A DNA stretch of 64,000 nucleotides from an uncultured Acidobacteriota bacterium (GCA_964412195.1 CAYPNP010000011.1:63881-127880); one strand, 5' to 3'; shown: positions 2,583 to 55,610, numbered from the stretch's first letter. The notes: a model not told the origin generated them from the sequence alone. Numbers and translations: made by a program.

Positions 2583-3902
2583 TCACTTGATCGGGACGCA
2601 GGTGCAGACCGGGACGCAGGAGCAGTACGAGTTCCCGCTGGGCCGGGGGACGGGGACCAGGATCGTTCCGGGGACGCAGTTGCAGGTGCACACGCAGCCG
2701 GCGGGGATCGGCGAGCCGCAGGGGAGGGTGTAGGTGATCGTCTGGCCGTACTGGTTGGTCCAGGTGTACTGCTGCGCCTCGCGGTTGTTGTCCAGCGTGG
2801 CTGGGTCAAACAGGTTGGTGAAGTATTCGCCGGTGCCGGCGTCCCACAGGCGGATGGTCTTGTCGTCGGCGCCGGAAGCCAGCACCCTGCCGTCCGGAGA
2901 GTACGCCAGGCAGTTGACAGCGCCTTCATGGCCGGACAGGGTCTTGACCGGCTGCCCGGTGTCGGTCGACCACAGCTTGACCAGGCGGTCCGCGCCGCCT
3001 GAGGCCACGCGCCGCCCGTCGGGGCTGCACAGGATCACGCCGACGCCGGTGCCGTGCGCCTTCCAGACCGGCCCGGGCGCGCCGTCGGGGAGGCCCCAGG
3101 TCCGGATCGTCTCGTCGGCACCGCCGGAGAACAGCCGCCGCCCGTCGGGGCTCCAGGCCACGGCATCCACCGCGGCGCCGTGACCGCGCAGGGTCTGCCG
3201 GCGGAGGCCCTGCGGGATGTCGTAGAGGCCGACGGTGCTGTCGGACGCCGCGGAGGCCAGCCATTGGCCGTCGGGGCTGAACGCCACGGCGCCGACCGGT
3301 CGCCGATGGCCGGTCAGGGTCTTGATGCGGCGGCCGGCCGCCAGGTCCCAGAGCTGGATGGCGCCGTCGTCGGTGCCGGAGGCCAGGTACTTCCCGTCGG
3401 GGCTGCAGTCGACGCAGAGTACGGTCTGGGCCCAGACGCGCAGGGTCTGGCCCAGGATCCCCTCGGGCAGCTGGCGGGACCGGATGGTCTTGTCGGCGTC
3501 ACCATAAACCGCCTCGCCACCCGGGCTGACCGTCACGCAGTGGACGGCGCTCTTGCCCGCCTGGACCTTGTGCAGCCGGCCGAGGGGCATCTCCCAGATC
3601 TTCACCGACATGTCGACGGAACCGGACACCAGGTAGGAACCGGTCCCGTTGAACGCCACGCCCTTCACCGGACCGGCGTGGGCCTGGATCGCCGCCGCCG
3701 GCTTGAGGGCCGGCGCGGCCGCCCGTACCGGCAGGCTCAAGCCGCCCAGGATCGCGGTGCCCGCCGCCGCGGCGACCAGGAAACTGCGCCGGTCCACGCT
3801 CCAGTCGAGCGGGACGTCCGACAGTTCGTACAGGCGGGGCTCGCCGGCGGACGCGTCGGCGTAGAAGTCCTGCAGCTGGAAGCGGGGCCGTCTCTCCGGC
3901 AT
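2583..3902 (-). CDS. Tat-signal WD40 beta-propeller protein (7 repeats) with Cys-rich C-terminal tail; putative radical-SAM substrate
   Basis: GGAGGG RBS, DRRSFL Tat motif, seven GH..SPDG..LASG..D..I.LWD repeats, tail LPCGSPIPAGCVCTCNCVPG..YCSCVPVCTCVPIK. Confidence 0.9.
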   Translation of the reverse strand: MPERRPRFQLQDFYADASAGEPRLYELSDVPLDWSVDRRSFLVAAAAGTAILGGLSLPVRAAAPALKPAAAIQAHAGPVKGVAFNGTGSYLVSGSVDMSVKIWEMPLGRLHKVQAGKSAVHCVTVSPGGEAVYGDADKTIRSRQLPEGILGQTLRVWAQTVLCVDCSPDGKYLASGTDDGAIQLWDLAAGRRIKTLTGHRRPVGAVAFSPDGQWLASAASDSTVGLYDIPQGLRRQTLRGHGAAVDAVAWSPDGRRLFSGGADETIRTWGLPDGAPGPVWKAHGTGVGVILCSPDGRRVASGGADRLVKLWSTDTGQPVKTLSGHEGAVNCLAYSPDGRVLASGADDKTIRLWDAGTGEYFTNLFDPATLDNNREAQQYTWTNQYGQTITYTLPCGSPIPAGCVCTCNCVPGTILVPVPRPSGNSYCSCVPVCTCVPIK

Positions 3903-3997
3903 GGTTCCCTCCCGAGGCAAGTGCTCACCCCGTTGGTAAAGGCTCTCTGATATGGTGACAGGCTATTGAACCACATCGGCGGTACGAAGGCAATGTC

Positions 3998-5497
3998 TCA
4001 CGTGAATTCAGGGCTGATTCCCGGCTCGGCCGGCCCGCCGGGGCGGCACCTGTCCTCCGTTGCCGTGGGCGCCCCGCCCCGAATCCAGGCCCTCCCTCCG
4101 TTTGCCTGGATCTCCTTGAGAACCAGGAATTTCGTCAGCTCCTGGTTCACCCGGCAGCGGAGCGGCAGTTCCCCGGCAGGGAGGCGGCGCTGTCGTTCGC
4201 CCTCCTTGACGGCGCAGTCCCCGGCGCAGTGCCACCGGCAGAAGCAGCCGTCGCAGGCGCGCGCCTGCAGCACCGAGCGCCGGCGGTGGCGGCGGGCGGC
4301 CGCCGGATCGAGGCGGAAATCCCCCGCCCCGTCCCACCGGCCGACCAGGAAGGCGCGGCTGAGGGGGTGCCGCCGCCCGTACACCTCGAAGCAGGCGCTG
4401 ACGTCGCCGGCGGGCGTCACCACCAGCGCCCGGCACGGCGCCAGGCAGAACCGCCGGGTCAGCAGCTCCGGCCGGGCGCCGGAGTAGAACAGCCGGATGC
4501 CGCGGGCGGCCGCGACGTCCCGCGCCGCGGCGAACTGGCGCAGGAACTCGTCCGGCTCGTCCAGCGCCGCGGGGGAGCGGCGGGCGCGGCCGGTGGCGAA
4601 GGCGGGCTCCGCCTGGATGGTGTGCGGCCGGAAGCGGGCGGCGATGTGGGCCACGCTTTCCGCGAGCGAGGCCACGCTGCCGCGCGTGACCGTCAGCCGG
4701 ACGCCGTAGCGGAATCCGGCCGCGTCCAGGGCTTCCAGCGTCCGGGCGGCGCGGCGGTAGGAGCCGCGGCCGCCGGCGCCCGGCCGCTGGGCGTCCTGCA
4801 CGGCCGGCGTCCCGTCGAAGGAGATGCTCAGCTCGGTGAAGTTCCGGAGGATGTAGTCCCGCACCCGGGCGGTCCAGCAGCCGTTGAAGGCGCCGGTCAC
4901 CTGGAGCGGGACGCCGAGGCGGTCCGCGCCGGCTCGGGCGCGGGCCACGGCGCGGGTGAGCACCGGCCAGTTCAGGCTGGGCTCGCCCCCGCCGTGGAAG
5001 GCCAGGGTCATCCCCGGCCGGCCGTGGCGGACCACGTCGGCCAGCACCCGGTCCACCGCCGCCCGGGCGAGGGGCCAGGGCATGTCCTCGGCCGGCAGCT
5101 CGCCCCCGTCGGCGTAGCAGTAGACGCAGCGGAGGTTGCAGCGGTTGGTGAGGAAGAGCACGGCGGTGTCGTAGCCGCCCGCGGCCGCGGCCGGGTCGTC
5201 CGGCGGGGGCGCCGCCTCCCGGAAGAGCCCCAGCCGCTCCAGGCCGGCCAGCAGGGAAGCCGGATCCTCTTCACGGGCCTCCCCTCCCGCGGTGGCCGCC
5301 CGTCCATTCATCGCCTGCTCCGGCGCCTCGGCCCGGCGGCGGACCTGCTCCACCAGCGCGCCGTTGGCGACGAAGGCGATGCCGTGGAGCGGCGCGTACA
5401 CGAGGTACCGGTCCGCGCCGGCCGGCACGGCGAAGATCTGCTCCGGCAGGCGGAAGCGACGGGACGGCGGGAATTCAGCGACGGGAAGGTCGGGCAT
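3998..5497 (-). CDS. Radical SAM/SPASM-domain protein, putative peptide/protein maturase
   Basis: CNLRCVYC (CX3CX2C), FHGGGEP, SPASM cysteines FCLAPC..GDVSACF and CDGCFCRWHCAGDC..RC, and an RRE-like N-terminal extension. Start is at 5497 or 5506. Confidence 0.92.
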   Translation of the reverse strand: MPDLPVAEFPPSRRFRLPEQIFAVPAGADRYLVYAPLHGIAFVANGALVEQVRRRAEAPEQAMNGRAATAGGEAREEDPASLLAGLERLGLFREAAPPPDDPAAAAGGYDTAVLFLTNRCNLRCVYCYADGGELPAEDMPWPLARAAVDRVLADVVRHGRPGMTLAFHGGGEPSLNWPVLTRAVARARAGADRLGVPLQVTGAFNGCWTARVRDYILRNFTELSISFDGTPAVQDAQRPGAGGRGSYRRAARTLEALDAAGFRYGVRLTVTRGSVASLAESVAHIAARFRPHTIQAEPAFATGRARRSPAALDEPDEFLRQFAAARDVAAARGIRLFYSGARPELLTRRFCLAPCRALVVTPAGDVSACFEVYGRRHPLSRAFLVGRWDGAGDFRLDPAAARRHRRRSVLQARACDGCFCRWHCAGDCAVKEGERQRRLPAGELPLRCRVNQELTKFLVLKEIQANGGRAWIRGGAPTATEDRCRPGGPAEPGISPEFT

Positions 5498-5641
5498 GGG
5501 CTCCATCCGGATTGTCGGTCGCCTGATTGTAGCCGATCACGCCGCGCTTTCCAAGTTCCGGTCCATTCGGCTATAATTCCGACGATCCGGCGGCCGCCCC
5601 GCCGCCGTGGCCCGGCGTCGGACACTCACGGGAGGTGGCCC

Positions 5642-6139: not shown

Positions 6140-6260
6140 GGGAATTCACCACAGAGGCACGGAGGACACAGAGGGGAATTCAGGGTTCCGATCCGCAATC
6201 CGCAATCCGAAAACCGCAATCTGCCGATTCACCCATTCACCTATTCACCCATTCACCCAT
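6140..6260. repeat. Composite oligomer array (CACAGAG, ATCCGCA, ATTCACCC modules)
   Basis: Three unit families in series between convergent genes. The last module contains the stop codon of the methyltransferase. Confidence 0.8.
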
Positions 6261-6973
6261 GCCAGGCACGCCAGGTACCCCCACGCCGGCTCGTCTACCA
6301 CGACCTCGCAGGACCAGCCGGCCCGGGCGGCCCGCTCGGCGAGGGTTTCCGGGTCGACGTGGAGCCAGCCGCAGTACGGCCCGCTCTGGCCCGCAAACTC
6401 GAGCTGGATGCGGATCTCGCCGACGTAGCGGCCGGCCTTCCGGTTGGCCTCGTGGTAGGCCAGGTGGCGCGGATCGTCGGTGTGCCGCACGTCCGTCGAA
6501 TCCAGCAGCAGCCGCCCGCCCGGAGCCAGCAGCCGCCGGGCCCGGTCGAGGAAGCGGTCCAGCCCGGCCAGGGTACCGGCAATCCCGACGCCATGGCCCA
6601 GCATCAGCAGGGTGTCGAACGGCCTCTCCTGGAACTGGAAGATGTCCGCGCAGCGGGCATCGCGGACGCTCCGAGCGGTCATGACCGCCACGGCCTCCGG
6701 GCTGATCTCGAGGGCGGTCACGGACAATCCCCGCTCCTGCAGGGCCAGCGTGTGCAGCCCGCTGCCGGCGCCGATGTCCAGCACGCGCCCACGGCATCTC
6801 TCCAGCGCGGCGTTCTCGAGGGGCGTGAACTCCGCCGGCGCCCGGAAAAAGTGGCCCACCGGCAGCGCGTATTCGACGCCGTCATCCCGCCGGACCGTCA
6901 ACCGCGCTTCCCTGTTGCCCTCAAAGTATGCCTTCAGCGCCAGCCCCTGCGGCGACATCGCTTGCGGTTCCAT
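6245..6973 (-). CDS. Class I SAM-dependent methyltransferase
   Basis: Motif I VLDIGAGSG; LEISP; FDTLLMLG. Confidence 0.9.
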   Translation of the reverse strand: MEPQAMSPQGLALKAYFEGNREARLTVRRDDGVEYALPVGHFFRAPAEFTPLENAALERCRGRVLDIGAGSGLHTLALQERGLSVTALEISPEAVAVMTARSVRDARCADIFQFQERPFDTLLMLGHGVGIAGTLAGLDRFLDRARRLLAPGGRLLLDSTDVRHTDDPRHLAYHEANRKAGRYVGEIRIQLEFAGQSGPYCGWLHVDPETLAERAARAGWSCEVVVDEPAWGYLACLAWVNG

Positions 6974-7403: not shown

Positions 7404-7517
7404 CGGCTCACCTGCATGCTGAATAGTTATCGGGACGAGACGAATTATTCTACCAAATTTTGGAACTAACCGAATCGGCTCCGTTTGATCAGGCAAACCT
7501 GTGAGGAGGATTGTCTG

Positions 7518-8030
7518 ATGAAATACGAGCGATTTGAGGACCTGCCGGCGTGGAAGGCGGCCATTCATCTGGCGATGGCGGTCTACGCCGTGACCCGGGA
7601 CCGGTTCTTCGTGCAGGCGGGCGACCTGCGCAGCCAGTTGCGGCGGGCGGCGCTGTCGGTGTCCAACAACATCGCGGAGGGGTTCGAGCGCGGAACCACC
7701 GCGGAACTCATTTCCTTCCTGTACATCGCGCGCGGATCGGCGGGGGAAGTCCGCTCCATGCTCTGCTTCATCGAGCAGAGCCCGGAATCGGGCCATCTCA
7801 AATCTCAAATTTCAAATTTGAAATTGTTGGCAGAGGATTGCTCCCGGCAACTCAGAGGGTGGACCAACCATCTGCAGAATTCATCCATCCAGGGGCAGCG
7901 GCACCTGACCGATGGCACGCGGAGGCGCGACGCGGCGCGGAAGGACGCGGACGATTTCCAGGCCAAGCTCGCCGAAACCCTGCACCGCGCCCTGCCGAAT
8001 ATTTATCCTGATCCACACTCGGAGGAGTGA
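7518..8030 (+). CDS. Four-helix-bundle protein (23S rRNA IVS / Avd-like family)
   Basis: FEDLPAWK..LRSQLRRAALSVSNNIAEGFERG..FLYIARGSAGEVRSML signature; GAGGAGG RBS. Confidence 0.92.
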   Translation: MKYERFEDLPAWKAAIHLAMAVYAVTRDRFFVQAGDLRSQLRRAALSVSNNIAEGFERGTTAELISFLYIARGSAGEVRSMLCFIEQSPESGHLKSQISNLKLLAEDCSRQLRGWTNHLQNSSIQGQRHLTDGTRRRDAARKDADDFQAKLAETLHRALPNIYPDPHSEE

Positions 8031-16731: not shown

Positions 16732-16883
16732 CATTTCACCGCAAAGGCGCAAAGGACGCAATGGCAATCTGAACGCTGAACGTTGAACTTCGAACGTCGA
16801 ACTCTGAACGGGAACCCCCTAGCTTGGCGAAATTTCTTGTCGTTCAGCGTTCGGCGTTCAGCGTTCGAAGTTCGACGTTCAGA
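16732..16883. repeat. CGCAAAG module plus GAACG heptamer inverted array
   Basis: tctgaacgctgaacgttgaacttcgaacgtcgaac ... gttcagcgttcggcgttcagcgttcgaagttcgacgttcaga. Confidence 0.85.
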
Positions 16884-55452: not shown

Positions 55453-55610
55453 GACGGAAACGGCGAAACGGCGGTGGGGCGAAACGGCGATACCCAGCCG
55501 TGCCACGGGAAATCGGTACACCGAGCGTCAGGGGCTGGCGCTGGTTGTTACCCATCCCCTACGGTCGGAGTCACCGTTCAGCGTTCGGCGTTCGATGTTC
55601 GCCGTTCAGA
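55453..55610. repeat. AAACGGCG module and CGTTC module between convergent genes
   Basis: aaacggcgaaacggcggtggggcgaaacggcgata; gttcagcgttcggcgttcgatgttcgccgttcaga. Confidence 0.75.

Follow-up and report, generated by a model that had tools for sequence, protein, structure and literature searches.

A cysteine-rich C-terminal tail on a predicted Tat-exported WD40 protein as the probable target of an adjacent radical SAM/SPASM enzyme

Two adjacent genes were analysed within 64,000 nucleotides of DNA from an uncultured Acidobacteriota bacterium (GCA_964412195.1 CAYPNP010000011.1:63881-127880; G+C 67%), a stretch that is called the window throughout. Both genes lie on the minus strand, as do all of their features described below. 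The downstream gene (2583-3902) encodes a protein of 439 residues, termed here the substrate protein, which is composed of a leader-like N-terminal segment, a twin-arginine translocation (Tat) motif, a WD40 β-propeller and a cysteine-rich C-terminal tail. Directly upstream, at a distance of 95 nt, is the gene for a 502-residue radical S-adenosylmethionine (SAM)/SPASM enzyme (3998-5506), identified from Pfam, NCBIfam and PDB searches and from Foldseek comparison of an AlphaFold2 (AF2) model, which is the predicted maturase of the tail. Taken together, the data indicate that the tail is most likely the target of this enzyme on a secreted protein.

The longest open reading frame (ORF) of the substrate gene covers 2583-3920 and opens with TTG at 3920, giving a product of 439-445 residues depending on the start; ATG 3902, which is located five bases past a putative GGGAGGG ribosome-binding site, is likely to be the true initiation codon. 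Upstream of the enzyme gene there is a sigma-70-like promoter match (5526-5554; TTGGAA-17-TACAAT), which is a consensus match only (9/12 positions); four sigma-70-like sites were found in the region vs 0.2 expected.

Translation of window positions 2583-2729 gives TLPCGSPIPAGCVCTCNCVPGTILVPVPRPSGNSYCSCVPVCTCVPIK followed by a stop codon. The last 48 residues of the protein (2586-2729) contain nine cysteines, against five in the remaining 397 residues (binomial P = 9e-9). The Cys-rich tail is therefore real rather than a product of chance, and the preliminary description, which had placed a two-block cysteine motif at the extreme C-terminus, was exact in its translation. A six-frame scan of the whole 64 kb window found no second real gene with either C[TNS]CVP or CxCx1-4CxC. 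The C-terminal module as a whole runs for 75 residues from FDPATL to the end of the protein (2586-2810) and retrieves relatives at E-values of up to 4.8e-24 in tail-only searches; common to those relatives are the sequences YTLPCGSPIPPGAxCTCNCVPG and CTC[ND]K[IV]CTCVP.

Alignment of orthologues divides the tail into block 1 (LPCGSPIPAGCVCTCNCVPG, 2667-2726), with the conserved pattern PC...CxCxC[VI]PG in which the Pro and Gly positions are invariant, and block 2 (CSCVPVCTCVPIK, 2586-2624), with the conserved pattern CxCx3CxC[VI]P[IV]K in which all four cysteines are kept in 21/21 orthologues. Conservation of the cysteines had been set beforehand as the point on which the idea of a functional tail could fail, and the alignment does not refute it. 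Residues C411, C413, C433, C435, C439 and C441 are Cys in every one of the 21 closest orthologues, and C401 and C415 in 18 of them. C409, however, is Cys in none and Ala in 20, making this cysteine specific to the window, and so the CxCxCxC run described initially reduces to a conserved CxCxC. Similarly, two of the three C[TNS]CVP units first noted are conserved as such, whereas the middle one, CSCVP, is mostly CTCNK or CTCDK in the orthologues. The conserved arrangement is thus PC...CxCxC(V/I)PG, a linker, and CxCx3CxC(V/I)P. Across the family the repeat unit is C-[TS]-C-[ND]-x-[VI] (171 units, Asn or Asp in 81%), and in the same 81% an [ND]xxC motif lies within the hexad C-[TS]-C-[ND]-x-[VI]-C. 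The C-x-P that follows the last Cys of either block is nearly invariant among relatives. When the 75-residue tail was modelled in isolation (AF2, 22 sequences) the predicted local distance difference test (pLDDT) value was 48, with no usable fold, a prediction which fits a segment that needs cross-links or ligands and proves nothing.

At the other end of the protein, a leader-like segment (MPERRPRFQLQDFYADASAGEPRLYELSDVPLDWSV, 3795-3902) was delineated by an alignment of 22 proteins and a hidden Markov model (HMM) derived for the leader. Its consensus, [KR]P.F.LQRVY.DGS.EEP.LY.L, ends a few residues ahead of RRGFL. The leader HMM matched 35 of the 3843 ORFs in the loci collected for this study, nearly all of them tail-bearing ORFs or truncated versions thereof, and in the window it matched the substrate ORF only. 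The leader is followed by a twin-arginine motif and hydrophobic region (DRRSFLVAAAAGTAILGGLSLPVRAAAP, 3711-3794), for which the motif RR.F[LM] is the basis. The arrangement in the window protein is of Tat type, with DRRSFL, then VAAAAGTAILGGLSL, then VRA|A; most relatives have RRGFL vs RRSFL here, and in most the RR.F[LM] motif lies at residues 35-55. The suggested dependence on Tat is in keeping with the presence of a twin-arginine motif, which would fit modification or folding ahead of export. The rest of the protein up to the tail is occupied by the WD40 β-propeller (2766-3698; Pfam WD40, 2.5e-68, six stretches, residues ~75-385), which is a variable cargo domain. In many relatives (among them proteins P0136, P0138-P0140 and P0161 and loci L003, L007, L008 and L019) a Gly/Ser-Cys lipobox-like site stands directly after the Tat hydrophobic stretch, which suggests that these are Tat-exported lipoproteins; the lipobox-like Cys is absent from the window protein.

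The enzyme matches Pfam Radical_SAM (PF04055) at 1.6e-09 and 38.6 bits, against a cutoff of 29.5. Its CxxxCxxC radical SAM cluster motif (C123/C127/C130; 5117-5140) is invariant in 33 homologues. The same is true of every cysteine in the SPASM region (4154-4447), namely C354, C372, C418-x2-C421-x5-C427-x3-C431, C451 and the additional C423, a pattern which fits the seven-Cys SPASM signature for two auxiliary 4Fe-4S clusters. Residues ~20-108 (5183-5449) are assigned from the AF2 model, conservation and Foldseek as an RRE-like domain, after the leader-binding winged helix known as RRE. In the model this region forms strands 25-28, 34-38 and 43-47 followed by helices 49-60, 63-67 and 82-91, and residues Y37, P39, L40, A44, F45 and N48 are invariant or nearly so among the 33 homologues. 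No PqqD/RRE profile match was obtained for this N-terminal domain.

The closest solved relative of the enzyme by PDB sequence search is CteB (5wgg, 7e-15), followed by SkfB. The AF2 model, built with the 33 homologues, has a pLDDT of 86, and in Foldseek CteB is again first (E 1.7e-20, 20% identity), aligned over 475 columns that include the N-terminus; TigE, anSME (rank 5, E 3.7e-12), SkfB and ChlB come after it. The best NCBIfam scores are to the nif11-type family TIGR04064 (88.4 bits, cutoff 518.7) and PapB NF047865 (87.1 bits, cutoff 340), and the next are to QhpD TIGR03906 (77.4 bits, cutoff 453) and the SCIFF maturase ScfB, TIGR03974 (77.1 bits, cutoff 425).

A scan with the enzyme alignment, using one genome per species, returned 327 relatives, of which 80 loci were kept. 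The estimate of family size rests on these 327, a minimum number that includes Nitrospirota, Acidobacteriota, Desulfobacterota, Chloroflexota, Planctomycetota, Bacteroidota and archaea. In 82 loci, ORFs with CxCx3CxC among their last 75 residues number 67 on the strand of the enzyme vs 4 on the opposite strand. A same-strand tail ORF is present in 58 of the 80 loci, and in 49 it lies no more than 300 nt from the enzyme (29 downstream, 20 upstream). When the search was made from the tail, the enzyme was found to adjoin in L001, L002, L083 and L085/L086, while L087 and L088 are too short to judge its presence. Within the close subfamily, the pair has no further gene family conserved alongside it. 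The earlier proposal that the tail belongs with a cross-linking type of enzyme is thus matched by a radical SAM/SPASM maturase homologue next to the gene and by the recurrence of this pairing in related loci.

The domain between leader and tail is WD40 in 64 of 83 loci and is replaced in Chloroflexi relatives by an Nbr1-type Ig domain (PF16158). It is missing altogether from mini-precursors of ~125-140 residues, in which leader, RR signal and tail are all that is present, the signal often having a lipobox-like Gly-Cys site. Other N-terminal partners and free-standing peptides had been suggested as objects of a search, and the tail is indeed also present on the Ig-like proteins and on mini-precursors of about 130 residues. 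Tandem substrate copies occur in six loci. Judged from these domain arrangements, the tail is a mobile module.

Several observations concern individual genomes and data sets. One cultured organism, Desulfosarcina cetonica JCM 12296 (L011; NZ_BBCC01000323.1), has the enzyme together with a WD40 protein carrying the CTCVPVCTCVPIK form of the tail found in the window, and as a deposited strain it would be practical for native proteomics. In L001 (6632-8297), L002 (658-1840) and L084 the gene callers place the WD40 part in one gene and the tail in a second, overlapping one in another frame. Frameshifts in the assemblies are the most likely cause, since L001 and L084 come from one assembly rich in fragmented genes and L036 has the tail of L002 on an intact ORF of 560 residues; splits that fall twice at the same junction merit a second look. 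A profile run against a representative library had kept columns of the last WD40 repeat and returned 182,706 generic WD40 proteins, with 13 of the top 150 matched via the tail, so that its counts are uninformative on family size. Those 13 did reveal tails with further domains behind them. In a search of sequencing runs, matches came only from DNA metagenomes (river, sediment, soil and wastewater), with no more than 16% of sequence words matched.

The tail is also found in settings other than the extreme C-terminus. In six relatives it is non-terminal and runs into a Peptidase_S74 domain (PF13884, 36-52 bits). Peptidase_S74 is an intramolecular chaperone and autoprotease. In these proteins the first position of the profile is a Ser directly after ...CTCIPVP, and self-cleavage at that Ser would free the tail as a C-terminus, as in the window; the linkage also hints at possible trimeric assembly of the tail. 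In P0226, P0337 and the ORF at L077:7375-8013, the sequence ...C.CIPVCQAHRLLD is followed by a helical extension of ~130 residues with no Pfam match. In more distant tails (L023, L026, L029, L031, L044, L063, L065, L068, L085 and others) the C-[TS]-C-[ND]-T-V hexad is repeated many times and the end is HYWYPN, with a conserved Tyr-Trp-Tyr. Loci of this type are larger; besides two to six radical SAM/SPASM genes they contain small genes that are PqqD-like and, in some cases, one for a B12-radical SAM protein. Finally, seven loci contain precursors of 104-132 residues without an RR motif beside enzymes of the same family; their leader is KPDDR...EPKIY...RPGLETYFA and their tails end in CRCAPVH or CTCVPVH.

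The combination of leader, Cys-rich core, SPASM enzyme with RRE-like domain and multiple substrate copies is the anatomy of a sactipeptide/ranthipeptide system. On balance it is judged somewhat probable that the tail is the core of a protein-sized substrate resembling the precursors of ribosomally synthesised peptides with post-translational modifications (RiPPs), and that Tat exports it after cytoplasmic cross-linking, which would probably take the form of Cys thioethers. In this scheme the RRE-like domain of the enzyme would first bind the N-terminal leader-like segment of the substrate in the cytoplasm. The radical SAM site and the SPASM clusters would then convert the eight conserved cysteines into intramolecular cross-links. 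By reference to the nearest relatives of the enzyme, the bonds would most likely be thioethers from Cys sulphur to carbon, of the sactionine or ranthionine type, by which the proline-rich tail would be held in a rigid knot. As the twin-arginine motif suggests, Tat would export the folded propeller together with its cross-linked tail, after which signal peptidase would cut off leader and signal together. Such joint removal would make a dedicated leader protease or transporter unnecessary, and none accompanies the pair. In the periplasm the finished tail may serve in stabilisation, oligomerisation, or metal or redox chemistry. The repeated C.CVP units had been proposed as recognition sites for the enzyme. 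The leader, a segment confined to tail-bearing proteins, is more likely to be what is recognised.

A number of points weigh against cross-linking of the tail by the enzyme. The bond type is assigned by analogy throughout, and binding of the leader by the RRE-like domain is likewise a proposal. Block 2 of the window, CSCVPVCTC, is without the Asn/Asp acceptor of most relatives, and hence an NxxC-type link would not be universal. The CxC-rich tail resembles metallothioneins. The enzyme falls below every curated NCBIfam cutoff, so that no characterised maturase family fits it and another activity is possible. Both Tat models score the substrate below their cutoffs (TIGR01409, 15.0 bits vs 16.7; Pfam TAT_signal, 16.8 vs 22.7). 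Lastly, 22 of the 80 enzyme loci are without a CxCx3CxC tail under the strict pattern, and the tail-bearing locus L084 has no enzyme within 5 kb.

The alternative that survives these data best retains the tail as substrate of the radical SAM enzyme and supposes a chemistry other than thioether cross-linking: conversion of Cys to formylglycine, as by anSME on C-x-P-x-R, or else epimerisation, C-methylation, links of C-C or S-S type, or formation of a redox cofactor. The window tail ends in C-V-P-I-K and block 1 has C-V-P-G, in a family where C-x-P is nearly invariant; anSME is among the top structural neighbours; the enzyme stands outside every characterised family; and the distant loci with two to six different radical SAM genes and a B12-radical SAM gene imply several chemistries. 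Against this, the anSME family TIGR03942 scores only 37.6 bits (cutoff 349), below the 77-88 bits of the thioether maturases, and the RRE-like N-terminal domain of the window enzyme has no counterpart in anSME. Furthermore, Pfam finds no sulfatase domain in the substrate protein, C-V-P-I-K occurs at the free end only, and eight conserved cysteines exceed the need of a single-site oxidation. A different chemistry is regarded as unlikely.

Less likely still is that the tail is mainly a metal- or Fe-S-binding thiolate cluster of metallothionein type, loaded before Tat export, with the enzyme leaving it alone or preparing part of it. Spacings such as CxC and CxCx3CxC are characteristic of metallothioneins, proteins loaded with a cofactor usually leave by Tat, and the tail of one relative weakly matches the plant metallothionein family PF02068 (E 0.014, 16.1 bits vs a cutoff of 31.8). 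However, no metallothionein model is above threshold and the window tail is without any match; metallothioneins are small and cytosolic, whereas the tail is part of a predicted exported protein of 439 residues; and metal-handling genes are not conserved nearby. Nor would metal binding alone explain the strict linkage to a maturase-type enzyme, or a leader-like segment that is confined to tail-bearing proteins. A mixed version is possible, with modification of some cysteines yielding a product that would bind copper or some other metal in the periplasm; bufferins are a case of this kind, their modified cysteines binding copper there (PMC11626156).

The reading of the tail as a plain disulfide-rich or low-complexity terminus of no special role, lying beside the enzyme by coincidence, has in its favour only that secreted proteins in general often end in Cys-rich sequence. 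It is extremely improbable, being contradicted by the conservation and linkage counts (six cysteines invariant across phyla; 67 vs 4 by strand) and opposed by the cysteine enrichment (P 9e-9), the co-occurrence of leader and tail and the recurrence of the module on unrelated middle domains.

A wider proposal is offered tentatively, and is considered more doubtful than cross-linking of the window tail itself. It holds that the pair represents an undescribed and widespread class of Tat-exported, radical-SAM-modified proteins in many bacterial phyla and some archaea. In members of such a class the Tat signal would be preceded by a recognition leader, cross-linking would affect a tail of CxC hexads at the far C-terminus, and signal peptidase would double as the leader peptidase; the tail would act as a periplasmic metal/redox or oligomerisation module, freed by Peptidase_S74 in some relatives. 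Searches of Pfam (2025 copy) and NCBIfam (release 20) at E-values up to 10 gave no family for the tail, the leader or the mini-precursors, and a literature search on the WD40/SPASM/twin-arginine/CxC system and on the literal tail motifs found no description. An eLife paper on conflict systems was considered as a match and rejected; it concerns FxSxx peptides. The gene pair thus seems to be previously undescribed.

Radical SAM/SPASM maturases are known mainly from small antibiotic-like peptides, whereas here the substrates are apparently whole folded proteins. Between leader and core lie ~400 residues and a Tat signal, and the cassette consists of two genes, without protease or transporter. If the proposed scheme is true, it would amount to a protein-scale branch of RiPP biology and to a natural case of Tat export after radical cross-linking. 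A large group of bacterial WD40 proteins that are now without a function would also gain one, and the leader and tail might serve as a portable tag for stapling or labelling proteins that are exported.

Other features of the window were examined alongside the pair. A TonB-like gene (1584-2369) and a methyltransferase gene (6245-6973) flank it, and since neither is conserved beside the pair elsewhere both are regarded as bystanders and were excluded as parts of the system. The methyltransferase (minus strand) is SAM-dependent, has as its best NCBIfam match a daptide-type RiPP methyltransferase (47 bits vs 175) and lies upstream of the promoter-like site of the operon. Downstream of the TonB-like gene, at 1448-1572, there is an imperfect inverted repeat with 47 nt arms of GTTCGNC heptamers and a terminator-like hairpin at its centre (1504-1532). 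Related copies are present at 16781-16870 and 55576-55597, and seven matches with up to three mismatches were counted vs none expected; the repeat looks like an intergenic element of the repetitive extragenic palindromic (REP) type. Rfam gave no match in the window. A 181-residue ORF at 7485-8030 on the plus strand (…SNNIAEGFERG…FLYIARGSAGEVRSML…) has a sequence that resembles, we presume, the four-helix-bundle proteins which intervening sequences often carry.

In comparison with known systems, the pair departs from the sactipeptide/ranthipeptide kind in its 439-residue WD40 substrate, in the Tat signal that lies between leader and core, and in having no leader protease or transporter of its own conserved across loci. 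A parallel for the spacing of the cysteines is StsA/StsB of Streptomyces sparsogenes, which likewise combines Pro-preceded alternating cysteines (PCxCxC) with a radical SAM/SPASM enzyme, one that there works with an RRE. There, StsB joins the PCxCxC donor strand by three Cys-Gly sactionines into a compact hairpin in which all cysteines are consumed in thioethers (PMC10288494). StsA, however, is a short peptide whose acceptor strand (GxGxG) has no equivalent in the window tail; the RRE of StsB is a separate protein; and the system has no signal peptide and no folded domain. The window enzyme scores 37.5 bits against the StsB family (cutoff 625).

By sequence and by fold, including the N-terminal RRE-like region and SPASM, the nearest solved structure is CteB, which belongs to the system of SCIFF and CteB/ScfB (thermocellin); this system also has a Cys-rich core. 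The product of CteB contains a Cys-to-Thr γ-thioether (PMC9389541), and Thr/Ser is the residue between the paired cysteines in the window family. In contrast to the substrate protein, SCIFF precursors are ~45 residues long and cytoplasmic; the TIGR03974 score (77 bits vs 425) and the 20% identity to CteB also set the enzymes apart. PapB (CX3D) and NxxcB (NxxC) offer a parallel of a different sort, in that one enzyme links repeated short Cys motifs in succession. In NxxC motifs, NxxcB connects Cys to the Asn β-carbon; Asp and Ala are also tolerated (PMC9389541). The [ND]xxC motif is embedded in the family hexad, and PapB is the second-best family match of the window enzyme (87 bits, well short of the 340 bits of its cutoff). 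Block 2 of the window, however, has Val-Pro-Val for Asn/Asp-x-Ile, and the PapB and NxxcB substrates are small peptides with dedicated export.

For a modified polypeptide that ends up in the periplasm, QhpC/QhpD is the relevant case: a polypeptide that becomes part of the periplasmic quinohemoprotein amine dehydrogenase receives several Cys thioethers from the radical SAM/SPASM enzyme. The computed likeness to QhpD is a family score of 77 bits against a cutoff of 453. No Qhp subunit or flavoprotein genes lie near the window pair, no Trp-derived quinone context is present in the window tail, and QhpC is a small subunit in its own right, not a tail attached to a propeller.

The order of events proposed here is paralleled by bufferins and by lipidated MNIO peptides. 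Bufferin precursors are Cys-rich, carry a Sec signal peptide and are cut at the signal-peptidase site (PMC11626156). Both groups resemble the window family in using a general export signal, cytoplasmic modification, a general signal peptidase and periplasmic action, and differ from it in having an MNIO iron enzyme in place of a radical SAM enzyme, a Sec or lipoprotein route in place of Tat, and small precursors (PMC11626156; PMC13056109). The bufferin signal peptide is dispensable for modification (PMC11626156), whereas in the window family a separate conserved leader precedes the signal. Bufferins are a precedent, from another enzyme class, for the export logic suggested for the window protein.

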